NCBI GenBank assembly: GCA_036522715.1
Contig: DATDFH010000170.1
Coordinates: 1 to 14,914 of the forward strand
Length of the DNA: 14,914 nt
Direction: 5' to 3'
From: Verrucomicrobiia bacterium
Lineage (GTDB): Bacteria; Verrucomicrobiota; Verrucomicrobiia; Limisphaerales; JACQFS01
Made by a program: the position numbers and the translations under genes. Of this stretch, positions 1,443-14,914 are shown piece by piece. Each line of letters opens with the position of its first letter. Within the stretch, counting starts at the first letter, position 1. Under the pieces are notes generated by a model that did not search any database, was not told where the DNA came from, and was given only the letters and a program-made list of their open reading frames with translations.

Positions 1443-1888
1443 CCGTCCGGACGGACGTCCGCCGTCGAACCGTTGCGTTTCAACTTCGACAGCAATTCTT
1501 CCGGCTCGTCCGTGCCGAGGGCAAAACGCCTGCCGTTGCTCAGCGTGATGGCGACGGCGTCGAAGCCCGAGACGTTGTAGAGCCAGCCGAAGCGGCTCAG
1601 GTGGATGCCCCAGCCCTCAAGGAAGTTCGTGCGCACGACGCAAATCGAGGCGATGTCGGCCAACGCGATGCGCTTGCGGATCAGGCCCGGACCAAAACGC
1701 CAGTGCAGTTCGCTGCCAGTGATTTCGATGGTGAGCGAGTGAAAGAGCCACGCGGCCAGGACGAGAATCGGCACAGCAATGAGCAGTGGCTTGGTGGCAA
1801 ACCAGCCGAGCAGGGACATGCCGGCGGCCAGTCCGAGCATTGCGACGAGGATGAATGTGCCGCGTTGGGTGTGTTCGTAGGATTTCAT
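1436..1888 (-). CDS. Small membrane protein with two N-terminal TM helices followed by a bacterial PH-like (bPH_2/YdbS-like) domain.
   Basis: ATG start at 1888. There are two hydrophobic helices (FILVAMLGLAAGMSLLGWF and LLIAVPILVLAAWLF) followed by a ~90 aa soluble domain. This architecture is typical of DUF304/bPH_2 proteins. The call rests on the architecture only. Confidence 0.55.
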   Translation of the reverse strand: MKSYEHTQRGTFILVAMLGLAAGMSLLGWFATKPLLIAVPILVLAAWLFHSLTIEITGSELHWRFGPGLIRKRIALADIASICVVRTNFLEGWGIHLSRFGWLYNVSGFDAVAITLSNGRRFALGTDEPEELLSKLKRNGSTADVRPDGC

Positions 1889-1903
1889 GATTCAGGTTGG
1901 GTT

Positions 1904-1932
1904 GGGAGCGGCTGCACGAGGCAGCCGCTCCC
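1904..1932 (-). terminator. Perfect 12-bp GC-rich hairpin (GGGAGCGGCTGC-ACGAG-GCAGCCGCTCCC) between the SPFH gene stop and the PH-membrane gene start. Putative intrinsic terminator or attenuator.
   Basis: Read directly from the sequence. It is a 12-bp perfect inverted repeat with a 5-nt loop. A T-rich tract (GTTTGCACTTTGGTT) follows on the plus strand, but no U-tract follows in the minus-strand transcript direction. Confidence 0.4.
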
Positions 1933-1949
1933 GTTTGCACTTTGGTTCA

Positions 1950-3320
1950 TTACCGTTGTGCCGCCGTGGGCACTGGCATCTGGAACAGGATGTTCGGCCC
2001 GGCCGCGCCGCCGCCGCCAAGCCACCATTGCGGGAAGCGGCCGTCCCACTTCTCCACGCGCGCCTTCTCGACTTCGAGCGTCTTGAGCTGGAGCAGCAGC
2101 GGATTGTTCGCGGCCTCCTGCGAGGCTTTGTTCACCTCGCGGATCGCCTCGGCCTCGGCCTGCGCGGCGGTCTTGCGCGCGTCGGCCTGGCCTTGTGCTT
2201 CGCGGCGCGCCTTTTCGGCCGTGGCGTTGGCTTCGAGTTCGATGCGTTCGTTTTCCTTCCGCTGCGCGTCGAACTTCGCTTCGGACACGACCTTGAGTTG
2301 TTGCGCGATGAACGTCTCGTCGATCGATTTCTGGATCGCCGGGTTCTCGTAGGTCATGCCGCCGAACATCCCGACGGTCGTGACGGTCACGCCGCGCGTT
2401 GCGAAGAACGCGGTCACGTCCTGCTTCACCTCGTCCACGATTTCCTGTTTGCGCGAGCGCAACTGGTCGAGCGGATATTTCGCCGCGACTTCGGCCGCGA
2501 CCTGCTGGATGCGGCCGCGCACCTCGTTGTCCATCACGTTCGCGAGCGAGCCGCTCGGATACCAGTAGAGGAATTTCGCCGCGTCCTCCTCCGAGATGAA
2601 GGCGGTGCAGGTGAATCCCATGCTGAACCCGACGCTGTCGGCGCTCTCGATCCAGATCGCCTTGTCGCTCGCGCCGCCGCGGTTCAACTGGCCGACGGAC
2701 TGCGGGCCTTGCGGCGTGGTCCATTCGCGCGTGAGCGGCGAGCGGTTCACCTTCACCAGGCGCACAGTCGGAATCCACCGGCCCGTGTATTCGAGCCGGC
2801 CTTCCTGCGACCAGCGATGCAGAATCTGCACGCGCTTGGCCGCGACCTTGCGCTGGAGGAGATAATCCTCGGACTGGAACTTCGCCTGTTGGCCGGTGTC
2901 GCCTTCGAGCGGGATGAGGAAGCCGGTCTCCGAAGTGTCGATCTCGACGAACTCCGGCTTGTCATACGGCTTGATGCAGCCCGTGAGCAACAACGCGGGC
3001 AACAGCGCGAGCACGGCGGTCTTTGCCGCGTTCCGCGCCTGACTGCGCCGCTGCCACTGCGCGGCGATCCAACTTGCGCCGCGTTTCAACCACGGCGCGA
3101 AGCACACCCACGCCGCGAGCAACGTGAGTGCGCCCGCCGCGAGATGCGCCGCGTCCTTGAGCGACTCGAATGTGCGCAACTGCGCCGCAGCGGCGTTTCC
3201 GCCGTTGAGTTGTTGCACGGCCAGCGCGGAGGCAATGCCAGGCTGGCGCGCGTTGAGCCACACGGTTTCCGCCGTCCACACGGCGCCGACGATCAATCCA
3301 AACACAATGATGCGTTTCAT
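1950..3320 (-). CDS. SPFH/band-7 (stomatin/prohibitin-like) membrane protein with a C-terminal coiled-coil.
   Basis: The track ORF extends to 3374, but that start is a TTG. The ATG at 3320 (MKRIIVFGLIVGAVW...) gives an N-terminal TM helix typical of SPFH proteins. The central part shows SPFH-like conservation. The C-terminus has an Ala/Glu/Lys/Arg-rich coiled-coil (AKFDAQRKENERIELEANATAEKARREAQGQADARK...). Confidence 0.75.
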   Translation of the reverse strand: MKRIIVFGLIVGAVWTAETVWLNARQPGIASALAVQQLNGGNAAAAQLRTFESLKDAAHLAAGALTLLAAWVCFAPWLKRGASWIAAQWQRRSQARNAAKTAVLALLPALLLTGCIKPYDKPEFVEIDTSETGFLIPLEGDTGQQAKFQSEDYLLQRKVAAKRVQILHRWSQEGRLEYTGRWIPTVRLVKVNRSPLTREWTTPQGPQSVGQLNRGGASDKAIWIESADSVGFSMGFTCTAFISEEDAAKFLYWYPSGSLANVMDNEVRGRIQQVAAEVAAKYPLDQLRSRKQEIVDEVKQDVTAFFATRGVTVTTVGMFGGMTYENPAIQKSIDETFIAQQLKVVSEAKFDAQRKENERIELEANATAEKARREAQGQADARKTAAQAEAEAIREVNKASQEAANNPLLLQLKTLEVEKARVEKWDGRFPQWWLGGGGAAGPNILFQMPVPTAAQR

Positions 3321-3698
3321 AACCAACACCCACGATGTGCGCGCGCCCGCGCGCCGCCGCTGACGCGAGGTCAACTTCGGCCACGACGAGGCAACGGCGC
3401 GACGGAGCGCACGCGTTGTTGTGACGGGGTGATCAGATGGTGTCCCGACATCGGGACCCTAGAGGATCGCCCTTCCAATTGCCTGCGAGGTTAGCTGACG
3501 GGCTTGGTCCTGGAAGTGACCTTGGCGATGGTTGCCCACCGCCGTTCGCCCCGTCCGGAAACTCATTCCGGAATCTGGATCCCCCGCGCCGGCTTGTAGG
3601 AAGGCAAACCGGCTTCGGCTGCTACTTCAGACGGGATAGCGAATCGCATGAAATGCCGGCGTTGTCAAATGGGCGGTGGAAACACCAGCAAACAAGGG

Positions 3699-4097: not shown

Positions 4098-5582
4098 TTA
4101 CTGGCGTCCGGTGCGATGCAGCGGCACGAACGTGTGGTCGAACACGTAATCGCCCACATGGCGTCCGAGAACGATGCTCTCCGTTTTGTCGAAGGACCAG
4201 TGGATGCCGAGATAGATGCGGCTCTGGCCATTCTCTTCCTCCGCTGCGGAAAGCGACGGGAAACTGCGCGGGATCAGCGGGCGCACATTGCCGTGATTGT
4301 CGCGCGTGACGCCGTTGAACTCGTCCGAGACGAACGTGAATGGAATGTCGTCAGTCCCGTAAAAACGGCGCAGGACCTGAAAGAGTGCGGCGCCGAATCC
4401 GGCATGGCCCGACGGATACGCCGGGAAAGGCGGAGTGAAGTTCGGCCCCGTTAGATTGCTGGCCGGGGCGCCGAGCGGTGAGAAGGTCGGATCGCCGGCA
4501 GTGTTGGCATTCCCGTCGCCCGTTCCGGTCGGGCCGGTGCCTGGATCGGATTCGCGGATGCCGGTGATCGGGCGCCAGAAATCATAGAAATACTTCGACT
4601 CCCAAATCGCTATGCCGGCGTCGGCCATCGCGACGTTGATCAAGGCCAGGAGCCGCGCCAGTTCGAGATCGCTTGAGCCCATCTGGTCGGCGATGTGAAC
4701 GGCGATCTGGTTATACAATCGCGGCGGGGCGCAAAGGCTGGGAGTTCCGTCGTAGGCCCAAAAGATGCCGGCGTGGGTCTGGTCTGGCGTGCGAAGCGTC
4801 GGCGTCACCACACCGTCGCCGCCCAAGGCCTTCACTTCGTTGTAAGCCGCGGTGTATTGCGGGCTGTTCATCGCGGGCGGAGGCGGAACGCGGAACTGGC
4901 TGCCTGAACTCAGAACGAACGGGAGGCATTCGCCCCAATGCGCGCCCAGAGCCAGCGGAATTTGGCTGATGGGATCCTTACGCCAATGGCCGGCCAGGTT
5001 GCTCGTGATGTACCCCTCGCCGACGCGAGGTTCGGGGATTTCCGAGCCGTCGTTGGCTTTGAAAACAAGGATTGCGAGGGCGGCCTGCCTGCCCAACGCG
5101 ATCCCGACCGCCTTCGCGTTCTTGTTGTTGACCTCGGAAAGGTCTTCGGCCAACCGCGCGTCGAAACTCGCGGCCTGCGAAGGAAAGAGCGCCGCGAGCG
5201 TGTCATGCGCCGCCTGACTGATGGCGGCCTGCATCGAGAGCGGGCCGGAAGGCGCTCGCAGGCCCGCGTAGCTGGTGTATCCGCCGACCGCCGCGTTCAC
5301 TGTGTCGAAGATCGCGATGTGGACGATGGCCATCGCCCGGCTGGCGCGGCCCGGCCCGAGCTGTTCGCGGGCATTTGCGTGGTCGAAACCGCTGGCGTCG
5401 ATCGCGATTTGATTCCAGCGGCGGACCGAATCGAGACCTTTGCGCGGCCCTTGGCGCGGACTGGCGTCCAGATTTGGGGCGGCCTTGTAGAGCGGGCCGA
5501 AAGTCGCATTGAGTTCGTTGGCAGCCTGGCCCGCGAAGGCGGAGAGAGCCAGGGTGAGTGCGAGCGTGCAGGATGATTTCAT
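4098..5582 (-). CDS. Secreted PAP2-superfamily protein, vanadium-dependent haloperoxidase-like / acid-phosphatase-related.
   Basis: Signal peptide MKSSCTLALTLALSAFAGQA. All three PAP2/V-HPO active-site motifs are present in order: K-x6-RP (KYFYDFWRP), PSGH (AYPSGHAGFG) and SR-x5-H-x3-D (SRIYLGIHWSFD). A ~300 aa N-terminal domain is consistent with the V-HPO two-domain architecture. Confidence 0.75.
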   Translation of the reverse strand: MKSSCTLALTLALSAFAGQAANELNATFGPLYKAAPNLDASPRQGPRKGLDSVRRWNQIAIDASGFDHANAREQLGPGRASRAMAIVHIAIFDTVNAAVGGYTSYAGLRAPSGPLSMQAAISQAAHDTLAALFPSQAASFDARLAEDLSEVNNKNAKAVGIALGRQAALAILVFKANDGSEIPEPRVGEGYITSNLAGHWRKDPISQIPLALGAHWGECLPFVLSSGSQFRVPPPPAMNSPQYTAAYNEVKALGGDGVVTPTLRTPDQTHAGIFWAYDGTPSLCAPPRLYNQIAVHIADQMGSSDLELARLLALINVAMADAGIAIWESKYFYDFWRPITGIRESDPGTGPTGTGDGNANTAGDPTFSPLGAPASNLTGPNFTPPFPAYPSGHAGFGAALFQVLRRFYGTDDIPFTFVSDEFNGVTRDNHGNVRPLIPRSFPSLSAAEEENGQSRIYLGIHWSFDKTESIVLGRHVGDYVFDHTFVPLHRTGRQ

Positions 5583-5869: not shown

Positions 5870-8062
5870 ATGAAAACCTACCACTTCGTCAACAACCTCT
5901 GGAAGGACGCCGAGTTCGCCAAGCTCTCCAGCGTGGACCGCCTCGTGTATCGCTCGAACAAACTCGGCGCCGACCAGCGCATCACCAACACCGGCGGCGG
6001 AAACACTTCCTCGAAGCTCATGGAGAAGGATCCGCTCACCGGCGATCCGGTTGAGGTGCTGTGGGTGAAAGGCTCCGGCGGCGACTTGCGCACGAGCACG
6101 CGTGAGAATTTTTCTTCGCTCTATCAGTCGCGGCTCATCGGCCTCCAAAAGATTTACGCCGCGCGCAAAGACAAGGGCCTTAAGTCGCAGGCCGAGGACG
6201 ACATGGTCGCGGCCTACAATCACACCACGTTCAACCTCAACCCGCGCGCCTCGTCCATCGACACGCCGTTGCACAGCTTCATCGCGGCGAAGCAGGTGGA
6301 CCACATGCATCCCAACGCGATCATTTCCATTGCCGCCTCCGCGCGCTGCGTCGAGCTGACCAAGGAAATCTTCGGCGGCGAAATGGAATACGTGCCGTGG
6401 ATGCGTCCCGGTTTCGAGCTGGGCCTGGCGATGCAGGACATCTGCGCCAAGAACCCGAAGGCCACGGGCATCATGATGGGCCAGCACGGCTTCATCTCGT
6501 GGGCCGATGACGACAAGGAATGCTATCTACGCACGCTCGACTACATCGAGAAGGCGTCGGCTTACATCGAGAAGCAGTATCAGGCGAAGGGCGGCGACAA
6601 GGCGGCGTTCGGCGGCGCGAAGTTCAAGTCGCTCTTGCAGGAGAAACGCAACGAGGTCTTCGCCGCCATTCTTCCGTGGCTGCGCGGCCAGGTTTCGCAG
6701 CAGAAGCGTTTCATCGGCACAGTGCAGGACGATGAGAAGATTCTCCGCTTCGTGAACTCGAAGGATGTGCCGCGCCTCGCAGAGTTGGGCACGAGTTGTC
6801 CCGATCATTTTCTCCGCACGAAGATCAAGCCGCTCTACGTGGATTGGAACCCGCAGTCCGAGGACATCGCCGCGCTCAAATCGAAACTCGGCGTGGGGCT
6901 GGAAGCGTATCGCAAGGACTACGCGGCGTATTACAAGAAGTGCAGGCACGCCAACTCGCCCGCGATGCGCGACCCGAATCCGACGGTCATCCTGATCCCC
7001 GGCTGCGGCATGATCGCGTGGGGCAAGGACAAGAGCGAGTCGCGCGTCACCGCCGAGTTCTATAACTGCGCCGTCGAGGTCATGCGCGGCGCGGAGGCCA
7101 TCGACAAGTACATCGCACTGCCGCAGCAGGAGGCGTTCGACATCGAGTATTGGCTGCTCGAAGAGGCGAAGCTCAAGCGCATGCCCGCCGAGAAGGAACT
7201 TGCGCGGCAGATCGTCATCGTCGTCGGCGCCGGCAGCGGCATCGGTAAGGAAGTGGCGCACCGGTTGGTGAAGGATGGCGCGCACATCGTCTGCGTCGAC
7301 CTCAAGCTCGACGCCGCACAGGCCACCGCGAAGGAGATCACCGACAAATACGGCGCCGGCATCGGCGTGGCGGGCAGCGGCATTTCCAATTGCGGCGTCG
7401 CCATCGGCCTCGCGTGCGATATCACCAAGCGCGACAGCGTGCGCGGAATGCTCGACCAGGTGGCGCTCGCGTACGGCGGCTTCGATTCCATCGTCGTGAC
7501 TGCCGGCATCTTCGTCGCACCGGACACGACCGGACGCATTCCCGACGACAAGTGGTCGCTGACTTTCGCCATCAACGTGATGGGTTCCTACCTCGTGGCC
7601 GACGAGGCGAAGAAGAACTGGCTCGAACAAGGATTGCCCGGCAGCCTCGTGCTGACCACCAGCGCCAACGCCGTCGTAGCGAAGAAAGGTTCCGTCGCCT
7701 ACGACACCTCGAAGGCTGCGGCGAATCATCTCGTCGGCGAACTCGCCGTGGAACTCGCGCCCCTCATCCGCGTCAACGGCGTCGCACCGGCGACCGTGGT
7801 GCAAGGCTCGGCGATGTTCCCGCGCGATCGCGTCGTCGCCAGTCTAGCCAAATACGGCATTGCCTACAAAGACAGTGAATCCAGCGACGCGCTGACCGAG
7901 CGGCTCGCCAGGTTTTACGCGGACCGCACGCTGACGAAGAATCCCATCACGCCCGCCGACCAGGCTGAAGGTTTCTTCCTGCTGGTTTCAAACCGCCTCG
8001 CCAAGACGACCGGCCACATCATCCCAGTGGATGGGGGATTGAGCGACGCGTTCCTGCGGTGA
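5870..8062 (+). CDS. rhaEW: Bifunctional L-rhamnulose-1-phosphate aldolase / short-chain dehydrogenase (lactaldehyde dehydrogenase), RhaEW/YuxG-type.
   Basis: 730 aa. The N-terminal ~440 aa has a class II aldolase/adducin-like domain. The C-terminal ~250 aa has an SDR domain with glycine-rich NAD(P) motif VVGAGSGIGKEVA and catalytic Y-x3-K (YDTSKAAANH). Length and domain order match TIGR02632-type fusion enzymes. Confidence 0.85.
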   Translation: MKTYHFVNNLWKDAEFAKLSSVDRLVYRSNKLGADQRITNTGGGNTSSKLMEKDPLTGDPVEVLWVKGSGGDLRTSTRENFSSLYQSRLIGLQKIYAARKDKGLKSQAEDDMVAAYNHTTFNLNPRASSIDTPLHSFIAAKQVDHMHPNAIISIAASARCVELTKEIFGGEMEYVPWMRPGFELGLAMQDICAKNPKATGIMMGQHGFISWADDDKECYLRTLDYIEKASAYIEKQYQAKGGDKAAFGGAKFKSLLQEKRNEVFAAILPWLRGQVSQQKRFIGTVQDDEKILRFVNSKDVPRLAELGTSCPDHFLRTKIKPLYVDWNPQSEDIAALKSKLGVGLEAYRKDYAAYYKKCRHANSPAMRDPNPTVILIPGCGMIAWGKDKSESRVTAEFYNCAVEVMRGAEAIDKYIALPQQEAFDIEYWLLEEAKLKRMPAEKELARQIVIVVGAGSGIGKEVAHRLVKDGAHIVCVDLKLDAAQATAKEITDKYGAGIGVAGSGISNCGVAIGLACDITKRDSVRGMLDQVALAYGGFDSIVVTAGIFVAPDTTGRIPDDKWSLTFAINVMGSYLVADEAKKNWLEQGLPGSLVLTTSANAVVAKKGSVAYDTSKAAANHLVGELAVELAPLIRVNGVAPATVVQGSAMFPRDRVVASLAKYGIAYKDSESSDALTERLARFYADRTLTKNPITPADQAEGFFLLVSNRLAKTTGHIIPVDGGLSDAFLR

Positions 8063-8092
8063 TCGAAGGGCCGACTGGCCGGTGAAACTCCG

Positions 8093-9379
8093 TCAGCGCA
8101 ACGTACGATCGAGACGCGCTTGGTGATAAGCGTGCCGTTGTGCCGGGCTCATCGAGTCAAAATCCGGCGAACCATCCGCGCGTTTGGGCCAATCACCCGA
8201 AGCAGATGACGTAAGAAGGCTCCCGCTTTTTCTCTCAACTCCCGCCGGCTTGGTGTTTGCGAGGGGATTGTTCCTTACCTCGACCGTCGTGCGCCGCGAC
8301 GAACTGCTGTCGTAGCTCATTACCTGATCGGTGAGCTTAAGGTCGTCATCCAACGAACGGTGCGGCTTGATGCCCTTGCTCTGAAGCACGCCGTGGTAGG
8401 CGCGCACGGCTTCCTCCGGCGTCACCTTGCCGTCAGTGATGAGCCGGAGCATCTCGATGAACGCGAGCTGGTGTTCGGCGTTGTTGATCTTGCGGCCGTA
8501 GAGCGCCACACGCGCGCCGTATTTCTGCGCGTCGTGAATGAGCTTGAAGGCGTCGTAGGTCGTGCCGGCGCTGCCGCCGAGAATTCCGACGACGAGGTTC
8601 GGATCGTATTGCGCAAGTTCCTCCATCGCCTTCGGTCCATGATAGACGATTTTCAGAAAGATGGGCCGGCCCGATTCCGGCACGCCGGCGAGCGTGCGGA
8701 GGATGTTGTCGTTGATGAACTCGCCGAGTTTTTCCGGCGCGATGCCGCTGTCCACGTTTGGATCGAAGACTTCGAGGAAGTGACGGAACTGCTTCCGCTC
8801 CGCCTCCTCGCGAAATTCCTTGTACCACAACAGCGCCTCGCGGTCCTGTTCGAGGTCGTTGACGTAGGTGATCGAGTAGAGGCCGAGGTTCGCGCCGGGA
8901 AATTCTCCACTTCCGTCGCGCTCACACTCGACCTCACCGCATTGGATGTGATCAATGCTCGCGCTGCGAAACGGCTGACTCGGCTCGCGCGTGTAACAGC
9001 CGTGGCGCACGGCCCACACGTCGGTGGTGTCATTCGCGCGTGCGGCGGGCGTGACGTGCGAGTCCTTGAACAAGCCTTCCTTGATCGTGAGCTGCTCGTT
9101 CACGTAAGCGCTCATCAGCATGATGTCGATGAGTCCCTGGTGCGTGACCTCGCGGATGATGTCGAGGAACTCCGGCAGGTTGCGGTATCCGAATTCATCG
9201 CGCGTCCAGACTTCGGGGGAAAATTGCGCCGGTCGAGCGCCGCCTCGCGCGAGATAGTTTCGCGGTCCCGGTGAGCGCGCGCCGAAAGCCATGTCCGCAT
9301 CCTTCGCGTCGGCGATGATGAACGCGCGCGACGAGCGGTTGGCTTTGATCTCAGCGAGCTTGGCGTCGAGGGATTTCAT
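8093..9379 (-). CDS. Class I aldolase-type TIM-barrel protein (DhnA/FbaB/LacD-like family) with a ~75 aa low-complexity C-terminal tail.
   Basis: ATG at 9379. There is a C-terminal family-like motif GARVALYGRKI (compare FbaB ...LILGRKAF). Residues KIVYHGPKA contain a lysine at a position plausible for the Schiff-base Lys. The Ser/Arg/Pro-rich tail SYDSSSSRRTTVEVRNNPLANTKPAGVERKSGSLL... looks disordered. The family assignment is from memory of motifs only. Confidence 0.5.
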   Translation of the reverse strand: MKSLDAKLAEIKANRSSRAFIIADAKDADMAFGARSPGPRNYLARGGARPAQFSPEVWTRDEFGYRNLPEFLDIIREVTHQGLIDIMLMSAYVNEQLTIKEGLFKDSHVTPAARANDTTDVWAVRHGCYTREPSQPFRSASIDHIQCGEVECERDGSGEFPGANLGLYSITYVNDLEQDREALLWYKEFREEAERKQFRHFLEVFDPNVDSGIAPEKLGEFINDNILRTLAGVPESGRPIFLKIVYHGPKAMEELAQYDPNLVVGILGGSAGTTYDAFKLIHDAQKYGARVALYGRKINNAEHQLAFIEMLRLITDGKVTPEEAVRAYHGVLQSKGIKPHRSLDDDLKLTDQVMSYDSSSSRRTTVEVRNNPLANTKPAGVERKSGSLLTSSASGDWPKRADGSPDFDSMSPAQRHAYHQARLDRTLR

Positions 9380-9389
9380 CGGATACGTG

Positions 9390-10310
9390 TCACGAATTCT
9401 TCGTGATCAGCCAGTCCGCTAGGCCCGCGCTCACGACAAGTTTTGCGAGTTCATTGGGGCCGATCACTTTAACGGAATTGGACGATTTCGGGTGCGACAT
9501 CTTGCCGTCGAAGGAATGGGCAACGAAAAAAAGTCGGTTGTGAGTTTTCGTCCGCTTCAACTCGTCGATGTAGTCTCGGACTTCATTGCTGTTCGAGCGC
9601 GATTTAATCTGTACAACCGCCCGCTCACCAGTAACGGGGGCGACGAGGTCCAAATCCCAACTCTTCTCGGTTTTCCCGCGCACACCTACGCGACGCCAAC
9701 CAGCTTGCACAAACACAAGGTCAACGAGAATTTCGAAGTCACCCCAGGTCAGATTTTGGATGAGAGGGACGAGGCAATTCTCCAGAGCGTACTTCGCAGT
9801 GTTGGCTCTTCTCACTTCGTCGGAACGCTTGCCGTTAATCCTGTCGATTGCGTATTGCCGCTCCTTGACTCGACATATAGTCCCGCGAAAGCCTCTCATC
9901 TGTGTGAGTTTTCCGCTGAGGGAGTCTAAGCTGAGACGCTCTCCCTTAATGTCAGTGTCGTGCCACTTTCCGATCACTCTTCTGATCTTCGTACCGTCGC
10001 GAAGCCGTCTTACCTTTTCCTCCGCAAAGCACCACCACATCCGAGACGCGTAAAATGTCAACCAAGCAGTCTTCGTGTTACGGGTATAGAAAAGCCTGAT
10101 TTGGTTGGTAAACTCTGTGGCCTTCCCTTTCGTTTTTGACCTTAGGTAGAATTTCCGAACCCTACTCCACTTTTCCGTGAGACAGTCATCGTGGTCTGAT
10201 TCTCTGAATCCGAGACGGATTGTTTGGGCGTTTTCAATGCAGTCCTGCTCCCACTGTCCTCCCGAACCCAATTTGATGTAGTAGATTTCGCTCGGCGAAA
10301 TTGCTTTCAC
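9390..10310 (-). CDS. Two-domain protein: an unknown ~170 aa N-terminal domain fused to a C-terminal Mrr-like PD-(D/E)xK restriction-endonuclease domain (Mrr_cat-like). Likely horizontally acquired.
   Basis: The C-terminal region FEILVDLVFVQAGWRRVGVRGKTEKSWDLDLVAPVTGERAVVQIKS matches the Mrr catalytic-core pattern (D...D-x-D...Q-x-K). GC is markedly lower (~50-52%) than flanking genes (~63%), with A/T-ending codons. The start is a GTG preceded by the SD-like AAGGGA, which native neighbours lack. Confidence 0.6.
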   Translation of the reverse strand: MKAISPSEIYYIKLGSGGQWEQDCIENAQTIRLGFRESDHDDCLTEKWSRVRKFYLRSKTKGKATEFTNQIRLFYTRNTKTAWLTFYASRMWWCFAEEKVRRLRDGTKIRRVIGKWHDTDIKGERLSLDSLSGKLTQMRGFRGTICRVKERQYAIDRINGKRSDEVRRANTAKYALENCLVPLIQNLTWGDFEILVDLVFVQAGWRRVGVRGKTEKSWDLDLVAPVTGERAVVQIKSRSNSNEVRDYIDELKRTKTHNRLFFVAHSFDGKMSHPKSSNSVKVIGPNELAKLVVSAGLADWLITKNS

Positions 10311-10335
10311 GTTTATCCCTTCGCTCTTTCGCGTC

Positions 10336-11379
10336 TCATTTCATCTGCGCTAGAATCTGGTCTGTGATCGCCTGCACGGCCTTCTCCGCTTCGGAATCGT
10401 AGCCGACTGTGGCTTCCTGTTTCGCGGGCACGGCGCAGGTGACTCCGGGGCGCCAGTCGTCGTTGTCGCACAGCTCGCACTCCTTGAGGCCGTAACGCGG
10501 ATCGGGAATGCCGAGGGTCTGCTTGATCTTGAGCAGGTCCTGAAGCTGGCCGGTGGTCATTGTCTTCGGCGGGACGCCCAGTTGGTTGGTCACGAGCACC
10601 GTGTGGCAATAGGCCTCGATGATCTCCATCTTGAAGTAGGCGTCCTCGACGTTGTTGTGGCTCCACGAGACGACGCCGTGATTGGCCATGAGGATGGTGT
10701 TGTGTTTGTCCACCAGTTCGGCGACGAGCTTGCCCATCTCCGGCGTGCCCGGCGTGCGATACGGCGCAATGGCCACCGACGCGAACACTTCAAACTCCGG
10801 AATCATGCACGACGGCGGCACCAGTCCGGCGATCGCGAAGGCCGTGCTGTACGGCGGATGGCAATGGCACGTCGCGACTGCCTTGGGCTGCTGCTTCATG
10901 ATCTGGAGGTGCATCAGGATTTCGCTCGTGCGCTTCTTCACGCCGGCGAGTTGGTTGCCCTCAAAGTCCACGAGGCACATGTCCTCGGGTTTCATGAAGC
11001 CCTTGCTCACCAGCGTGGGCGTGCACAGCGCGATGTCCTCGCCGACGCGGATGGCGATGTTGCCGCCGTTGCCGTCCACGTAGGCGCGCTGCCACAAGCG
11101 GCGACCGATTTCACAGAGTTGTTCCTTCAACGCGTGGCAGTAGGGCGAGTTGAAGAGTGCTTCGAGTTCGGCCTTCGGCGATTTGGAATTGAGCTGCTTC
11201 GCCGGCGCGCTTGTGGAACCACTGACGGCGGGCGCACCGGAGGCACCGCCGCGGCGTTGTAGGTCGCGGAGCATGTCCCTGGCGGACGGCGTGTAAACGG
11301 CATCGCCTGGCAGGCTTTTCAAATCGCCGCCGCGGGCGAGCACGGCCTCGATGTCTTTGGCGCTGATTACGTTCGTCAT
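10336..11379 (-). CDS. Class II aldolase (L-fuculose-/L-rhamnulose-1-phosphate aldolase family), BMC-associated, with a ~75 aa N-terminal extension and a ~45 aa C-terminal extension.
   Basis: The core carries the Zn-ligand motifs H-x-H (ATCHCHPPY) and a third His (MANHGVV), as in FucA/RhaD. The N-terminal extension has a short helix (SAKDIEAVLARGG) plus a Gly/Ser/Ala/Pro-rich linker. The C-terminus ends in an amphipathic helix (EAEKAVQAITDQILAQMK) resembling a BMC encapsulation peptide. The ATG at 11379 overlaps the upstream BMC-P stop (ATGA). Confidence 0.85.
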   Translation of the reverse strand: MTNVISAKDIEAVLARGGDLKSLPGDAVYTPSARDMLRDLQRRGGASGAPAVSGSTSAPAKQLNSKSPKAELEALFNSPYCHALKEQLCEIGRRLWQRAYVDGNGGNIAIRVGEDIALCTPTLVSKGFMKPEDMCLVDFEGNQLAGVKKRTSEILMHLQIMKQQPKAVATCHCHPPYSTAFAIAGLVPPSCMIPEFEVFASVAIAPYRTPGTPEMGKLVAELVDKHNTILMANHGVVSWSHNNVEDAYFKMEIIEAYCHTVLVTNQLGVPPKTMTTGQLQDLLKIKQTLGIPDPRYGLKECELCDNDDWRPGVTCAVPAKQEATVGYDSEAEKAVQAITDQILAQMK

Positions 11380-11681
11380 GGGTTGAAGGGGTTGTAAAAA
11401 ATATCGTCCACCAGCGCGGCATTGATGGCATCCACTGGCGTGGGTGCGTCGAACGGCTGCGCGGCCTCGCGGCCCTCGATGTAGCCGATGGTCTGGCCAA
11501 CGCCGCCGCCGAGAGCGTCATACACGACCAGGCTCGGGTCTTTGCTCAGGCCCGTCGGCGTCTGGGTGCCGCGCTGAAAATGTTCACGCGTGAATGGCGA
11601 GACGATGAGCCAACGCGCGCCGACCAGCTCGGGCGCCGCCTTGCTCAACGTGACGCGACCGATGACGGAGCCGAGCTTCAC
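11376..11681 (-). CDS. BMC vertex (pentamer) protein, EutN/PduN/CcmL family (BMC-P), paralog 3.
   Basis: MKLGSVIGRVTLSK...LVVYDALGGGVGQTIGY is the typical PF03319 pattern. The GTG start overlaps the preceding BMC-P stop (GTGA). Confidence 0.8.
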   Translation of the reverse strand: MKLGSVIGRVTLSKAAPELVGARWLIVSPFTREHFQRGTQTPTGLSKDPSLVVYDALGGGVGQTIGYIEGREAAQPFDAPTPVDAINAALVDDIFYNPFNP

Positions 11682-11956
11682 ACGGCCACCCCCGGTTCGA
11701 TTTCGTCCACGACACCGACGACCAGCCAGCGCACGGGACTTTTTTGATCACCGACGGCATTGCGCGCGGCAGAACCATCAGAGGAGATGACGACGCGCTG
11801 ATGCATGCCGGCACCGTGCGAATCGATCGCGATTTGCGGCGCGCCCTCGGCATCGCCGGCGTGATTGATCGGCTGACAGATCACAAGCCGCCAGCCCTCG
11901 AAGCTCGGATGCTTGCGAGTCGCCACGACATTGCCTTCAACACGCGCGAGGAGCAC
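11678..11956 (-). CDS. BMC vertex (pentamer) protein, EutN/PduN family (BMC-P), paralog 2.
   Basis: MLLARVEGNVVATRKHPSFEGWRLVICQP... is PduN-like. The GTG start lies 3 nt after the aldehyde dehydrogenase stop. Confidence 0.75.
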   Translation of the reverse strand: MLLARVEGNVVATRKHPSFEGWRLVICQPINHAGDAEGAPQIAIDSHGAGMHQRVVISSDGSAARNAVGDQKSPVRWLVVGVVDEIEPGVAV

Positions 11957-11959
11957 GGC

Positions 11960-13456
11960 TCAATAGATCCTCAGGTTGTCCACCATCACGCAGCGACGGA
12001 CGCGCGTAAAGGTTTTCGGATTCGTCACGCCTTCGCCGGTCGGCGTGGCGATGGAGTAGCTCAAGTAACCCTCGCCGCCGAGGCCGAGACCGGCCATGCA
12101 CGGGCCGTTCTTGATGAACAACGTCGTGTCGAGCGCGCGGCCCATCGCGGTCATCGCCTCGACGTCGTGCGAGTGGATGATGCTCGTGTGCTTGTAGCCG
12201 TGCTCGGCTTCGAGCGAATGCGCGACGCCTTCCTCCAGGCTCTTCACGCGCGTGATCGGCAGGAAGGGCATCATCTGCTCCTCGACGACGAACGGATGGT
12301 TCGCGTCCGTCTCGGCGAAGAGCAACTGCGTGCCGGCCGGAATGTTAACGCCGGCCGCCTTCGCGAGAACACCGGGGTCCTTGCCGATGAAATCCTTGTT
12401 CACCGAGGCGTGCGGACAGCCGCCGCCTTCGCCGGGCTTGAAGGTGAACGCCGCCTTCGTTAGCGCGTCGAGTTGGGCATTGCTCAACTTCACCGCGCCG
12501 TTCTGCTCCATCTGCGACATCAATTTGTCCGCGATGTTTTCGAGCGCAAAGACTTCCTTCTCGCCGATGCAGAGCAGGTTGTTGTCGTAGCTGGCGCCTT
12601 GGATGATGGCCTTGGCCGCACGCTTCATGCAGGCGGTGTCATCGACGAATACAGGCGGGTTGCCGGGGCCGGCGCAGATGGCGCGTTTGCCGGTCTGCAT
12701 CGCGGCCTTCACCACGCCGGGACCGCCGGTGACGAGCAACAGCCGCACGGCGTCGTGCTTACACATGGCCGCGAAGCTTTCCATCGAGGGCTTCTCGATG
12801 GTGGTCGCGATGTTCTCGATGCCGGTCTCGCGGTAGATGGCTTCGTTGTAGGCGCGCACCGCGGTGGCGGCACAACGCGCGGCGGCCGGATGCGGATTGA
12901 ACACGGCGGCATTCCCAGCGGCGCAGATGTTCACGATGTTGCCGCTCAACGTCGGGATGGAATGCGTGCTCGGCGTGACCGCGCCGACGACACCGAACGG
13001 CGTGTATTCCTCGAGCGTGATGCCGTGGTCGCCGCTGCGGCCATCGGGGCGAAGCCACTCCACGCCGGGGACGAGTTTGATGATCTTGAGCTTCTCGATC
13101 TTGTGGTCGAGCCGGCCGATCTTCGTCTCGTCGAGTTCGAGTTTGCCCCACGCCTCGGCGTTGGAGTCCGCCATCGACTTGATGATCTCGACGATCTTCA
13201 CGCGCGCGGCGACGCCGGCCTTCTGAAGTTGCAGGAAAGATTCCTGCGCGGCGGCGCAGGCTTCGTTGGCGTCCTGGAACACGCCGAACTTCCCGCGCAA
13301 CGCGGGCTTGCCGTTCGTTGAATTCTTGCCGCCGCAGCCGCAATCCTGCCTCGGTGCGGGAGCGGGAGCGGATTTCGCCGCTGGCGCTGCGCCGCCCAAA
13401 CGGCCCAACACTTCGGTGACAACGTCTCGAATCAAAGTTTCGTTCACGGCACTCAT
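11960..13456 (-). CDS. CoA-acylating aldehyde dehydrogenase (PduP/EutE-like) with an N-terminal BMC encapsulation peptide.
   Basis: N-terminal MSAVNETLIRDVVTEVLGRLGG is an amphipathic helix, followed by the Ala/Pro-rich linker AAPAAKSAPAPAPRQ. This is the classic encapsulation-peptide-plus-linker arrangement (compare PduP MNTSELETLIRTIL...). Catalytic Cys context NLLCIGEKEVF. The ~500 aa length fits the family. Confidence 0.9.
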   Translation of the reverse strand: MSAVNETLIRDVVTEVLGRLGGAAPAAKSAPAPAPRQDCGCGGKNSTNGKPALRGKFGVFQDANEACAAAQESFLQLQKAGVAARVKIVEIIKSMADSNAEAWGKLELDETKIGRLDHKIEKLKIIKLVPGVEWLRPDGRSGDHGITLEEYTPFGVVGAVTPSTHSIPTLSGNIVNICAAGNAAVFNPHPAAARCAATAVRAYNEAIYRETGIENIATTIEKPSMESFAAMCKHDAVRLLLVTGGPGVVKAAMQTGKRAICAGPGNPPVFVDDTACMKRAAKAIIQGASYDNNLLCIGEKEVFALENIADKLMSQMEQNGAVKLSNAQLDALTKAAFTFKPGEGGGCPHASVNKDFIGKDPGVLAKAAGVNIPAGTQLLFAETDANHPFVVEEQMMPFLPITRVKSLEEGVAHSLEAEHGYKHTSIIHSHDVEAMTAMGRALDTTLFIKNGPCMAGLGLGGEGYLSYSIATPTGEGVTNPKTFTRVRRCVMVDNLRIY

Positions 13457-13473
13457 AGTCTGTTCGCCGCCTG

Positions 13474-13788
13474 CTACTGGGCTTTCGCGCTGTAAATTTG
13501 TTTCCCGAGCACATCCACGGTGTCCACGATGCCGATGATGACGGCGTCCACCGGGGCGTCTTTCATGCCGCCGGCCAGGCGGGCGCTGCTGCCCTGACAG
13601 AACATCACCAGTTCGTTGATGCCCGCGCCGACGGTGTCCACCGCCACGATGGTGTTCGAGCCGGGGCGGAATTTCGTGGGATCCTTTTCATCCACCAATT
13701 GCGGTCGGAGCAGGAGCAGCTTGCGGCCGTTCATGCTGGCCTCTTTCTTGGTCGAGACCACCGAGCCTTCTACGCGAGCGAGGAACAT
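13474..13788 (-). CDS. BMC vertex (pentamer) protein, EutN/PduN family (BMC-P), paralog 1.
   Basis: MFLARVEGSVVSTKKEASMNGRKLLLLRP... closely resembles the PduN N-terminus. ATG start. Confidence 0.85.
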   Translation of the reverse strand: MFLARVEGSVVSTKKEASMNGRKLLLLRPQLVDEKDPTKFRPGSNTIVAVDTVGAGINELVMFCQGSSARLAGGMKDAPVDAVIIGIVDTVDVLGKQIYSAKAQ

Positions 13789-13851
13789 GGTGTTAAGGAA
13801 TTTACAGCAATCGGCAATCGGTGGAGGCCGTCACGGATTGCGCATCACTCG

Positions 13852-14142
13852 TTACGTTGTCCGCTTCTTCGGCAGGACCGCGTCCACGTCGTTGTGCGGG
13901 CGGGCGATGACGTGCACGCTGACGACTTCGCCCTTGATGGCCTTGATGGCTTGGGCGCCGGCGTCGGTGGCGGCCTTCACGGCGGCGACGTCGCCGACGA
14001 CGACCGCGGTGACGAGGGCGTTGCCGACCTGCATCATCGGGCCGGCAAGCTCGACGTTCGCGGCCTTGAGCATCGCGTCGGTGCCCTCGACGAGGGCGAC
14101 GAGGCCGCGGGTTTCAATCATTCCAATTGCTGGTTGTGCCAT
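13852..14142 (-). CDS. BMC hexamer shell protein (PduA/EutM-like, PF00936, BMC-H).
   Basis: [28 protein letters not shown]...[19 protein letters not shown]...[16 protein letters not shown] is near-colinear with PduA motifs. Confidence 0.9.
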
Positions 14143-14186
14143 AGTTTAGTTGATGGTTGATGGTTCGGAGAATTGGTGAGGAGTAA

Positions 14187-14914
14187 TCAATTTCGACTTT
14201 CGAGCAGGCGCTTCGCTTCGCGTGCGACGACGAGTTCCTCGTTCGTCGGAATCACCAGCACTTTCACGCGTGAGTTGGTGGCGCTGATGACCGCTTCGGT
14301 GGCGCAGGTGGAATTGTTTTTCTCCACGTCGAGCACGATGCCGAGCTGGTCGAGGTTCGCGCAAATCGCGGCGCGCAGTTCCGCGCGGTTCTCGCCGATG
14401 CCGGCAGTGAAGACGATGGCGTCGGCGCCGTTCATCTGGAAGAAGTAGCCACCAATCCAGCGACGCGCTTCGCTGACGAACACATCGATCGCGAGCTTGG
14501 CCTTGGCGTTGCCTTTCGCAGCGGCATCCTGGATGTCGCGAATGTCGTTGGAGAGTCCGCCGCTGAGACCTTTGAGGCCGGCTTCCTTCGAAAGCTGGCG
14601 TTGCGCTTCCTCGACGGCGAGGCCGAGAGTTTTGGCGGCGTAGGGCAACGCTTCTGCATCGAGATCGCCGACGCGGTTGTTGTGCGGCAGGCCGGATTGC
14701 GGGCTCATGCCTAGGCTGTTGCCTATGGCGACGCCGTTCAGGATCCCCGTGATGCTGGAACTGCCACCCAAGTGACACGAGATGACTCGGAGCGGCGCGC
14801 CAGTTACTGGAGACTTGCCACCGCTCACGTAAAGACTCTGCGCCCGCGATGAGACGTCCGTCCGTCCGAACATTTCCGCGCTGCGTTCGGCGATGAACTT
14901 GTGGCTCGCGCCGT
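14187..14914 (-). CDS. ackA: Acetate (acyl) kinase, C-terminal ~240 aa. The 5' end lies beyond the window end.
   Basis: VFTAGIGENRAELRAAICANLDQLGIVLDVEKN and VLVIPTNEELVVAREAKRLL match the conserved AckA C-terminus. The ORF is open to the window edge; the ATG at 14873 is internal. Confidence 0.85.
   Translation of the reverse strand, partial: GASHKFIAERSAEMFGRTDVSSRAQSLYVSGGKSPVTGAPLRVISCHLGGSSSITGILNGVAIGNSLGMSPQSGLPHNNRVGDLDAEALPYAAKTLGLAVEEAQRQLSKEAGLKGLSGGLSNDIRDIQDAAAKGNAKAKLAIDVFVSEARRWIGGYFFQMNGADAIVFTAGIGENRAELRAAICANLDQLGIVLDVEKNNSTCATEAVISATNSRVKVLVIPTNEELVVAREAKRLLESRN

Follow-up and report, generated by a model that had tools for sequence, protein, structure and literature searches.

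The minus-strand genes between positions 10336 and 14914 of the window, the stretch of 14,914 nucleotides analyzed here, are the downstream two-thirds of a PVM-type bacterial microcompartment (BMC) operon from an uncultured soil member of the Verrucomicrobiae. Judging by the genes it contains, their order and the taxon, the locus very probably encodes the published PVM-type metabolosome for fucose and rhamnose, which operates via lactaldehyde (definition and pathway: PMC4207490, PMC6620236, PMC8217296), the shell proteins being compared by positional orthology to Planctomycete loci. As a PVM member the locus adds little, since the organelle type is already known: experiments have characterized it, catalogues list it from hundreds of genomes, and its Verrucomicrobia form with three hexamer and three pentamer proteins has already been described. 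The sole part of the locus that may be new is the gene at the end of the operon, which codes for a 428-residue protein that we call P428.

Extent and gene order of the operon

The operon is transcribed on the minus strand, from position 14914 downwards. The source contig (35.4 kb, from a soil metagenome) ends within ackA at window position 14914, which is why the window opens inside the kinase gene and lacks the 5' part of ackA. The remaining part covers profile positions 199-392 of 392 in PF00871 (E 6.5e-56) and scores 191.6 bits with NCBIfam TIGR00016; full-length orthologues have 396-397 aa in L002 and L003, the complete syntenic loci of close relatives, whose CoA-acylating aldehyde dehydrogenase (AldDH) is 90-93% identical to that of the window. 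A profile search with PF00936, PF03319, PF00171, PF00596 and PF00871 recovered all seven minus-strand genes that a preliminary description of this DNA had listed, in the order given there (Table 1). Gene families, order and spacing can be read directly from the DNA. Intergenic distances from ackA to the aldolase gene, taken from open reading frame coordinates, are 44, 63, 17, 3, -4 and -4 nt, in agreement with the range of 4-nt overlaps to 63 bp reported earlier. The accompanying count of nine genes is right only when one continues along the run as far as 8093, across gaps of 25 nt (aldolase to the 10310-9390 gene) and 10 nt (from there to the 9379-8093 gene); within 10336-14914 there are seven. 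The convergent gene beyond (NF006189, 1085.6 bits against a cut-off of 634; TIGR02632, 1006.6 bits) does not belong to the operon and provides a rhamnose-catabolic context; in L002 it has the same orientation and lies two genes downstream of P428.

Table 1. Features of the operon and its convergent neighbour, in window coordinates.
Feature	Position	Strand	Remarks
ackA, 3' part	14187..14914 (ORF 14912-14187)	-	C-terminal 241 codons; acetate/propionate-family kinase; PvmG position
BMC-H	13852..14142	-	96 aa; single PF00936 domain, 76 bits
BMC-P paralog 1	13474..13788	-	104 aa; PF03319, 99 bits; PvmH position
CoA-acylating AldDH	11960..13456	-	498 aa; PF00171; PvmJ position
BMC-P paralog 2	11678..11956	-	92 aa; GTG start; PF03319, 94 bits; PvmK position
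BMC-P paralog 3	11376..11681	-	101 aa; GTG start; PF03319, 55 bits; PvmM position
Class II aldolase	10336..11379	-	347 aa; PF00596, 147 bits; PvmN position; signature enzyme
Mrr-type nuclease-like gene	9390..10310	-	306 aa; PF04471, E 2.6e-5
P428 ("hypothetical protein", operon end)	8093..9379	-	428 aa; predicted class I aldolase TIM barrel
Bifunctional rhamnulose-1-phosphate aldolase/short-chain dehydrogenase	5870..8062	+	730 aa; convergent neighbour, outside the operon

In the relatives, the full locus consists of a divergent deoR gene, PTAC (PduL, PvmB), BMC-H, BMC-H, ackA, BMC-H, BMC-P, AldDH, BMC-P, BMC-P, aldolase, sometimes an Ldh-like gene (PvmO), and the 428-aa gene. PTAC (PF06130) and DeoR occupy the expected place in L002, L003 and most of 39 near-complete loci, so that the suggestion of a PduL gene upstream of ackA is borne out in L002 and L003, and where a second BMC-H was to be looked for, the relatives have two further BMC-H genes. 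PTAC, these two BMC-H genes and deoR are absent from the window, cut off by the end of the contig within ackA, and we infer this upstream third of the operon from the relatives only. Upstream sequence of 9 kb or more is available for 45 related genome loci, a set with nine Planctomycete loci in it, and 39 of the 45 contain at least nine of the ten core genes in the same order. The synteny spans two phyla: the order of enzyme and BMC-P genes recurs in those Verrucomicrobia loci whose upstream sequence is long enough and in the nine Planctomycete loci, which differ in how many BMC-H genes they have and in how these are ordered. Most of the 80 related genome loci carry a Verrucomicrobia label and nine a Planctomycete label, and the approximately nine others (Proteobacteria, Klebsiella, Bifidobacterium/Bifidobacteriaceae, Haliangiales, "bacterium" and "metagenome") look like MAG binning errors.

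Shell genes and locus type

The BMC-H protein of the window is EutM-like in NCBIfam and, by comparison with the relatives, the third BMC-H of the locus; in Verrucomicrobia loci, the orthologue at this position shares 80-96% identity with it. As the contig end cuts ackA, the shell-gene count of the window is incomplete. The earlier statement of one BMC-H and no BMC-T gene describes the window correctly, but "only one BMC-H" is a truncation artefact, since the relatives have three, at a BMC-H to BMC-P ratio of 3:3. Such a set of three BMC-H and three BMC-P has already been published for Verrucomicrobiota (PMC8857213). Every PF00936 gene of the window, and of L002 and L003 as complete relatives, has a single domain and 91-97 aa, and neither the window nor these two loci contain a BMC-T or tandem PF00936 gene. 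At least one locus classified as PVM, in a Phycisphaeraceae genome, does have a BMC-T, of 207 aa (PMC8217296 supplement).

The three BMC-P paralogs, which the preliminary description had already pointed out, are real and, judging by their sequences, old. Upon alignment, paralogs 2 and 3 are 37% and 29% identical to paralog 1, respectively. In Planctomycete loci, each of the three best matches the BMC-P gene at its own position: for the first BMC-P, paralog 1 gives the highest score of the window paralogs in nine out of nine of these loci, and paralogs 2 and 3 have positional orthologues in all complete loci. Paralog 3, the most divergent, overlaps each of its neighbours by 4 nt. The triplet, together with the lack of BMC-T, had been regarded as the hallmark of the PVM type, but it is not confined to PVM, as HO, SPU, ACI, FRAG, MIC4 and MUF2 loci also have one (PMC8217296). 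PVM loci combine the triplet with an occurrence only in Planctomycetes and Verrucomicrobia (PMC8217296 supplement). From the feature list of the type, we find here the PF00596 aldolase, the PF00171 AldDH, the PF00871 kinase, the BMC-P triplet and a taxon within Planctomycetes/Verrucomicrobia. The original PVM-type interpretation therefore stands, by gene content, order and taxon, and the complete relatives have three BMC-P genes and no BMC-T gene.

Other aldolase-containing metabolosome types with a BMC-P triplet have to be considered in place of PVM, namely MIC4, MUF2 and ACI (Sutter et al., 2021). All three share with the present locus an AldDH, the triplet and a PF00596 aldolase with a C-terminal encapsulation peptide; MIC4 and MUF2 additionally have PTAC, MIC4 loci also have a PF00871 kinase, and no AldDH is more closely related to that of PVM than the MUF2 enzyme (PMC8217296 supplement), so that the enzyme set alone does not separate the types. 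What separates them is their BMC-T and/or PduS genes, satellite loci and other phyla: MUF2 has BMC-T proteins and its aldolase is usually in a satellite locus, ACI has its AldDH on a satellite locus, and all three types occur in other phyla. By contrast, L002 and L003 contain no PduS and no tandem PF00936 gene and hold everything in one operon, and the closest relatives of the window are mostly labelled Verrucomicrobia, with the gene order conserved in Planctomycetes. We therefore consider it very unlikely that the locus belongs to MIC4, MUF2 or ACI. Even more improbable is a PVM-like/GRM5 locus, in which lactaldehyde would be reduced and the resulting 1,2-propanediol dehydrated by a glycyl-radical enzyme. 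GRM5 does share the class II aldolase as signature family, likewise with an encapsulation peptide at the C-terminus, but its gene order differs, the taxon here is Verrucomicrobia with a BMC-H to BMC-P ratio of 3:3, and no glycyl-radical enzyme or activase (PF01228, PF04055) is encoded within 10 kb in L002 and L003. The absence of PF01228/PF02901 genes in the relatives is largely decisive against the GRM5 reading.

The PVM locus of Planctopirus (Planctomyces) limnophila is said to have been described by Erbilgin and colleagues in 2014 as comprising pvmB, D, E, G, H, J, K, L, M, N and O. We compared it by its description, with sequences from Planctomycetales MAG loci as stand-ins. It has the same enzyme order (kinase, BMC-P, AldDH, BMC-P, BMC-P, class II aldolase), the same BMC-P triplet, encapsulation peptides at the N-terminus of the AldDH and the C-terminus of the aldolase, and upstream the DeoR regulator and PTAC that are seen in the relatives of the window. 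However, the present locus has an extra BMC-H between the kinase and the first BMC-P, which makes three BMC-H where two are stated for P. limnophila; the second and third BMC-P are not separated by a PvmL-type gene, and the aldolase instead bears a motif of about 38 aa that resembles the N-terminus of such a gene; and PvmO is missing.

Verrucomicrobial PV-BMC loci (Ca. Fucivorax/Mariakkermansia, Lentimonas, Limisphaera) have the same enzymes together with three BMC-H and three BMC-P (PMC8857213, PMC13608581), and the window locus is another member of this group. BMC proteins have been found in Verrucomicrobiota metaproteomes from algal blooms (PMC8857213), and shells or BMCs have been seen in Limisphaera grown on rhamnose (PMC13608581). 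The window differs from the published loci of the group by its origin from a soil metagenome, by the insertion of an Mrr-like nuclease gene and by the lack of an Ldh-like gene.

Predicted cargo enzymes and proposed pathway

The AldDH (NCBIfam NF011927, 596 bits) has an N-terminal encapsulation peptide at about residues 5-21 (NETLIRDVVTEVLGRLG), followed by a linker rich in A, P and S that extends to about residue 55; Cys296 is the candidate catalytic residue. The N-terminal helix, NETLIRDVVxEVLxRL, is conserved in both phyla and the linker varies, in line with the encapsulation peptide postulated earlier for this enzyme. At E<=1e-50 the AldDH has 7992 homologues, of which the best 120 are 85-100% identical; among the matches listed, the nearest relatives are named Verrucomicrobia or Limisphaerales. 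The class II aldolase has the reverse arrangement, with a catalytic domain at residues 86-261 (candidate metal ligands His172, His174 and His234) and, after a variable linker, a C-terminal helix that is conserved in both phyla and contains the encapsulation peptide AEKAVQAITDQILAQMK. C-terminal encapsulation peptides on BMC aldolases have been published (PMC4594438; PMC4207490). An N-terminal extension of about 80 aa bears the motif of about 38 aa mentioned above, which aligns with the N-terminus of the gene that lies between the second and third BMC-P in Planctomycete loci. As the aldolase scores below every NCBIfam equivalog cut-off (the best being 3-oxo-tetronate 4-phosphate decarboxylase, with 119 bits against 250), its substrate specificity rests on context. 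The AldDH and the aldolase are predicted to be loaded as cargo via the N-terminal amphipathic helix of the former and the C-terminal helix of the latter.

The pathway is taken from the published PVM model, from which we infer substrates, flux and encapsulation. L-fuculose-1-phosphate or L-rhamnulose-1-phosphate would enter a shell made of BMC-H hexamers and BMC-P pentamers, where the aldolase would cleave it to DHAP and L-lactaldehyde. AldDH would convert lactaldehyde with CoA and NAD+ to lactyl-CoA, PTAC would free the CoA and yield lactyl-phosphate, and the kinase would turn the latter into lactate and ATP. That growth on L-fucose or L-rhamnose requires such a locus and that shells form on these sugars comes from the literature (PMC4207490, PMC13608581, PMC8857213); the rhamnulose-1-phosphate aldolase/dehydrogenase gene next to the operon lends this some support from context. 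In the model, NAD+ is normally recycled through conversion of a second lactaldehyde to 1,2-propanediol, a step for which this locus has no gene: the lactaldehyde reductase that had been anticipated (PvmO, Ldh-like; PF02866) is found neither between aldolase and P428 nor elsewhere in the window. The lack of PvmO leaves the locus without the gene for NAD+ recycling inside the shell, a point against the PVM reading. PvmO is present in 27 of 62 related loci and so is variable within the group, and its absence is not disqualifying.

The inserted nuclease gene and P428

The gene downstream of the aldolase matches Mrr-type PD-(D/E)xK nucleases over residues 184-290 and, weakly but over its full length, the PADLOC candidate PDC-S02. 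It is a window-specific insertion into the spacer between aldolase and P428, not a part of the organelle: it is absent from all 82 other related loci, the insertion site in L002 is a spacer of 21 bp, and its GC content is about 0.53, against 0.60-0.65 in its neighbours. Homologues are scattered across phyla, the best full-length match being 74% and the next about 50% identical; a record of 216 aa is 100% identical over 71% of the query. Selfish genes are scattered in the operon, among them nucleases, PIN toxins, an IS200-type transposase and 23S-IVS-type proteins. Their presence in an operon that is otherwise rigid is a small, clear case of how mobile genes come to occupy spacers between conserved genes.

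Of 71 loci from two phyla, 62 have P428 downstream of the aldolase, be it immediately or with Ldh or an inserted gene in between. It is 82-87% identical among the best 120 relatives and 57-59% identical to its Planctomycetes counterparts, and the exact protein of the window is on record in a Verrucomicrobiae MAG. P428 has no Pfam match at E<=0.1, and its NCBIfam hit, ADH synthase, reaches 17 bits against a cut-off of 241-299. It models as a (beta/alpha)8 barrel closest to the DeoC/LacD/FbaB group of class I aldolases, and our prediction is a TIM-barrel aldolase of class I, with Schiff-base chemistry and of the LacD/FbaB/LsrF type. A profile search against the PDB gave a partial match to LsrF (E 0.0016), in which the phosphate-binding motifs of beta7 and beta8 align and the GILGG motif falls on LsrF 223-229. 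Lys243, invariant in the 31-sequence two-phylum alignment (A3) and located on a predicted strand 20 residues before GILGG, is a candidate Schiff-base lysine; as its counterpart we propose Lys203 of LsrF, which we take to be the catalytic residue of that enzyme, the equivalence being drawn from a gapless count. P428 is 10-15% identical to the DhnA, FbaB, LacD, LsrF and YihT enzymes (PF01791 clan), and differs from them by insertions (residues 42-62) and by a C-terminal linker and helix of about 70 aa, which are absent from the known enzymes.

It is possible, though we would not call it probable, that P428 functions within the organelle as a second ketose-1-phosphate aldolase that releases an aldehyde and may be encapsulated via its conserved C-terminal peptide. 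Its linkage to PVM loci in both phyla, its place in the same tightly spaced gene run of the window, the match of its beta7/beta8 motifs to LsrF and the position of Lys243 all speak for such a role. So do two relatives fused to PfkB sugar kinases, a locus (L018) with D-lyxose isomerase, ketohexokinase and P428 in a row, and a Planctomycetales locus (L079) in which P428 directly follows the third BMC-P and no class II aldolase is found in 21 kb. The C-terminal helix, conserved behind a variable linker (about residues 356-396), is a further argument. However, this helix differs from typical encapsulation peptides in its basic character and its small number of aliphatic residues, and is also retained where P428 is not beside BMC genes. 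Moreover, nine of 71 loci have P428 without an upstream class II aldolase, core PVM genes are wholly absent from four of the 45 loci with at least 9 kb upstream, and a cytosolic role for P428, with DHAP or some other sugar phosphate as substrate, is equally conceivable. We therefore put forward only tentatively that P428 may represent an unrecognized class I ketose-1-phosphate aldolase family that is a conserved component of PVM loci in Verrucomicrobia and Planctomycetes alike, and that would serve the organelle either as a second aldehyde-releasing enzyme of a different mechanism or as a DHAP-handling partner.

Together, the data confirm that soil Verrucomicrobiae carry a fucose/rhamnose metabolosome beside a cytosolic rhamnulose-phosphate aldolase/dehydrogenase. 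If the proposal for P428 is true, the PVM core would be one enzyme larger and the accepted list of PVM enzymes incomplete. If P428 works in the organelle, the model of lactaldehyde generation and the range of sugars that feed it would need to be revised.

A PVM-type operon shortened by the contig end

From the window end down to position 8093, the minus strand carries an uninterrupted series of closely packed genes, whose families were identified by profile searches (see table). From ackA to the class II aldolase the gaps are, in order, 44, 63, 17, 3, -4 and -4 nt; the Mrr-like gene and the gene for a 428-residue protein continue the series with gaps of 25 and 10 nt. Profile searches and ORF spacings bear out the order and tight packing of the seven genes named in the preliminary description. 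Its count of nine genes holds when the Mrr-like and 428-aa genes are included, but only seven lie within 10336-14914. The three separate BMC-P shell protein genes that it noted are present; when aligned, they share only 29-37% identity. A scan of 7900-14914 detected nothing resembling a promoter, and its terminator-like sites were as frequent as in shuffled sequence, making both results uninformative on operon boundaries.

Features of the window and of related loci
Locus	Feature	Position	Strand	Family or remark
Window	LOG-family protein	774-1442	minus	PF03641
Window	Long ORF, probably spurious	1887-3494	plus	
Window	SPFH/Band_7 gene	1950-3374	minus	
Window	c-di-AMP (ydaO-type) riboswitch	3465-3630	minus	Rfam RF00379, 64 bits (gathering 38)
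Window	Vanadium-haloperoxidase/PAP2-like protein	4098-5582	minus	494 aa
Window	Bifunctional rhamnulose-1-phosphate aldolase/short-chain dehydrogenase	5870-8062	plus	
Window	428-aa gene	9379-8093	minus	no Pfam family
Window	Mrr-like gene	10310-9390	minus	C-terminal Mrr-type nuclease domain
Window	Class II aldolase	11379-10336	minus	PF00596, 147 bits
Window	Aldolase N-terminal extension	11142-11379	minus	residues 1-80
Window	BMC-P, third	11681-11376	minus	55 bits
Window	BMC-P, second	11956-11678	minus	94 bits
Window	Aldehyde dehydrogenase (AldDH), acylating EutE/PduP kind	13456-11960	minus	NF011927, 596 bits
Window	BMC-P, first	13788-13474	minus	PF03319, 99 bits
Window	BMC-H, single domain	14142-13852	minus	PF00936
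Window	Acetate/propionate-family kinase (ackA)	14912-14187	minus	PF00871, C-terminal half only
L002	Rhamnulose-1-phosphate aldolase/dehydrogenase with neighbours	14497-21121		
L018	Isomerase, kinase and 428-aa homologue	8134-11254		one strand
L030	Carbonic anhydrase-like gene, beta class	9339-10001		Pro_CA, 181 bits
L031	Carbonic anhydrase-like gene, beta class	1718-3074		
L070	Carbonic anhydrase-like gene, beta class	8358-9064		
L078	RpiB/flavoprotein-like gene	7787-8413		
L079	428-aa gene directly after third BMC-P	9699-11185		
L082	RpiB/flavoprotein-like gene	6854-7675		

Because the contig ends inside ackA, PduL and further BMC-H genes are visible only in relatives. AldDH homologues number in the thousands, the 120 listed being 85-100% identical; the exact sequence was found on one 35.4-kb soil-metagenome contig (ENA ERZ923669), and the window lies at the contig end. 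We collected related loci by using an alignment of the 428-aa protein to scan genomes, one from each species. At least 600 stretches matched, and 584 of the 600 listed encode a relative. The best 80 loci mostly bear Verrucomicrobia labels (63-91% identity to the 428-aa protein), nine are labelled Planctomycetes (57-59%), and the few with labels from unrelated taxa appear to be misbinned. When all operon genes were mapped by tblastn onto these loci, their order proved constant throughout, and 39 of the 45 loci that have at least 9 kb of upstream sequence hold nine or more of the ten core genes. In the Planctomycete loci, each BMC-P paralog of the window best matches the gene at the equal position, so that the triplet is orthologous across the two phyla.

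The long contigs of two close relatives, L002 and L003, show the complete locus: a divergent deoR, followed by PTAC (the PduL-type phosphotransacylase, PF06130), BMC-H, BMC-H, acetate kinase, BMC-H, BMC-P, AldDH, BMC-P, BMC-P and class II aldolase. The 428-aa gene closes the locus in both, preceded in L003, but not L002, by an Ldh-like gene that follows the aldolase. In both relatives PduL stands upstream of ackA, where it had been expected, and the supposed single BMC-H is a truncation artefact, since both relatives have three. The window locus lacks the lactaldehyde reductase (PvmO) that had also been anticipated; 27 of 62 related loci have it.

Sutter et al. catalogued 285 PVM loci, restricted to Planctomycetes and Verrucomicrobia, and named their parts PvmB, D, E, G, H, J, K, L, M, N and O (PMC8217296); Verrucomicrobiota with three BMC-H and three BMC-P genes were already described by Orellana et al. 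(PMC8857213). Gene content, gene order and the matching loci in relatives all support the original assignment to this type. The proposed hallmark, a BMC-P triplet without BMC-T, fared less well: the triplet is there, but HO, SPU, ACI, FRAG, MIC4 and MUF2 loci share it, and a BMC-T occurs in at least one locus classified as PVM, so that these features alone are not diagnostic. The nearest rival type, MIC4, has four enzyme families in common with the window locus; it differs in being found in other phyla and in having a PduS/PduT pair, which was not seen in L002 or L003. The data therefore place the window locus, shortened by the contig end, among the PVM loci already catalogued, and the system is a known one.

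Elsewhere in the window, the c-di-AMP riboswitch lies directly upstream of the SPFH/Band_7 gene and is overlapped by the long plus-strand ORF; the LOG-family and haloperoxidase-like genes are unrelated neighbours.

Proposed pathway and encapsulation

The lactaldehyde pathway outlined here follows the published PVM model (PMC6620236), and on rhamnose Limisphaera makes shells (PMC13608581). Inside the shell, the aldolase would cleave fuculose- or rhamnulose-1-phosphate to DHAP and lactaldehyde. The dehydrogenase would convert lactaldehyde to lactyl-CoA, from which PTAC and the kinase would yield lactate and ATP and recycle CoA, while reduction of a second lactaldehyde to propanediol would recycle NAD+. 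The metal-site histidines of the aldolase are retained, as an H-x-H (His172 and His174) and a later His (His234), and the dehydrogenase has a Cys in an NNLLCIGEKE context; going by FucA and PduP, we take these to be the candidate catalytic residues.

The AldDH N-terminus NETLIRDVVTEVLGRL is kept in both phyla and leads into an Ala/Pro/Ser linker that varies; the conserved aldolase C-terminus AVQAITDQILAQMK is preceded by a variable linker, and a similar helix is found at the N-terminus of PTAC in relatives. Encapsulation peptides have been described with this make-up, a conserved helix with a variable linker (PMC4594438). As a hydrophobic-moment scan did not single out known encapsulation peptides, the argument rests on helix conservation versus linker variation. 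These sequence features fit the published pathway, with putative substrates and putative encapsulation.

Verrucomicrobial PVM aldolases also carry an N-terminal extension of about 80 aa with a motif of about 38 aa, VISAKDIE...LPxDAxxTPSARDxLR, which had no match when scanned alone against Pfam. The aldolases examined from Planctomycetes, 277-302 aa long (336 aa in one ORF call), are shorter and do not have the extension. In Planctomycete loci, an RpiB/flavoprotein-like gene separates the second BMC-P from the third and begins with the same motif; this gene is missing from Verrucomicrobia loci.

Convergent to the operon is a bifunctional rhamnulose-1-phosphate aldolase/short-chain dehydrogenase gene. 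In L002 such a gene is accompanied by a PF00171 aldehyde dehydrogenase and LutABC lactate-utilisation genes, so that a cytosolic route from lactaldehyde via lactate to pyruvate adjoins the compartment route.

Insertions in the operon spacers

The Mrr-like gene is lodged in the short spacer that separates the aldolase from the 428-aa gene, a site at which L002 has a spacer of 21 bp. The GC content of the gene is about 0.53, against 0.60-0.65, and no counterpart was found in any of the 82 other related loci. Homologues are scattered over unrelated phyla, the best full-length match being 74% and the next about 50%; a search for repeats flanking the gene, direct or inverted, gave nothing above chance-size matches. 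The gene is a recent insertion and stands outside the organelle's parts.

Sporadic small genes also sit in various operon spacers of L003, L005, L009, L010, L012, L015, L017, L019, L045, L052, L059, L065 and L068, mostly with GC below that of the surroundings. Pfam confirms an IS200-type transposase (L009), a PIN/DUF3368 protein (L012), a PD-(D/E)xK PDDEXK_3 ('GxxExxY') protein (L015), 23S-rRNA-intervening-sequence-type four-helix proteins (L015, L059), an N6/N4 DNA methylase (L068) and a Bro-N protein (L003); similar ORFs in the remaining loci were assigned from resemblance only. In three Verrucomicrobia loci a carbonic anhydrase-like gene sits within the operon, either following the aldolase or separating ackA from BMC-H; Pro_CA was confirmed for that of L030. 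These intra-operon insertions, outside the interval of the preliminary description, are worth a note.

The 428-residue protein that closes the operon

In 62 of the 71 loci with enough upstream sequence, the class II aldolase is followed by the 428-aa gene, either directly or after an Ldh-like or an inserted gene. The product of the window's 428-aa gene is entered in NCBI under a Verrucomicrobiae MAG and called a hypothetical protein. Pfam returned no family, a PDB sequence search no match, and NCBIfam only sub-threshold matches to ADH synthase. The closest 120 relatives listed are 82-87% identical, and an exhaustive search gave 1081 cluster representatives, two of them fused to PfkB sugar kinases.

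Structure prediction from relatives at least 82% identical reached a pLDDT of 40; with an alignment of 50%-cluster representatives, AlphaFold gave a (beta/alpha)8 barrel at pLDDT 81.5. In the family profile, a GILGG...GRK region aligns to the strands that bind phosphate in LsrF (E 0.0016), and 20 residues upstream of it is a conserved Lys243, presumably at the position of the LsrF catalytic lysine. L018 has no BMC context; there, a D-lyxose isomerase (PF07385) is followed by a prokaryotic ketohexokinase (PF25270) and then by a 428-aa homologue, a trio that looks like an isomerase-kinase-aldolase pathway. In the Planctomycetales MAG locus L079, the 428-aa gene comes straight after the third BMC-P, and no class II aldolase was found across 21 kb.

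In both phyla the C-terminus has a variable linker of 40-60 residues, then a conserved WP..DG.PDF..MT..ER.AY...RL.R; this terminal peptide is basic and atypical of encapsulation peptides, and work inside the compartment is possible, if somewhat doubtful. Although it lies outside the interval first described, the 428-aa gene is the most interesting item of the locus, and we infer that it encodes a ketose-phosphate aldolase.
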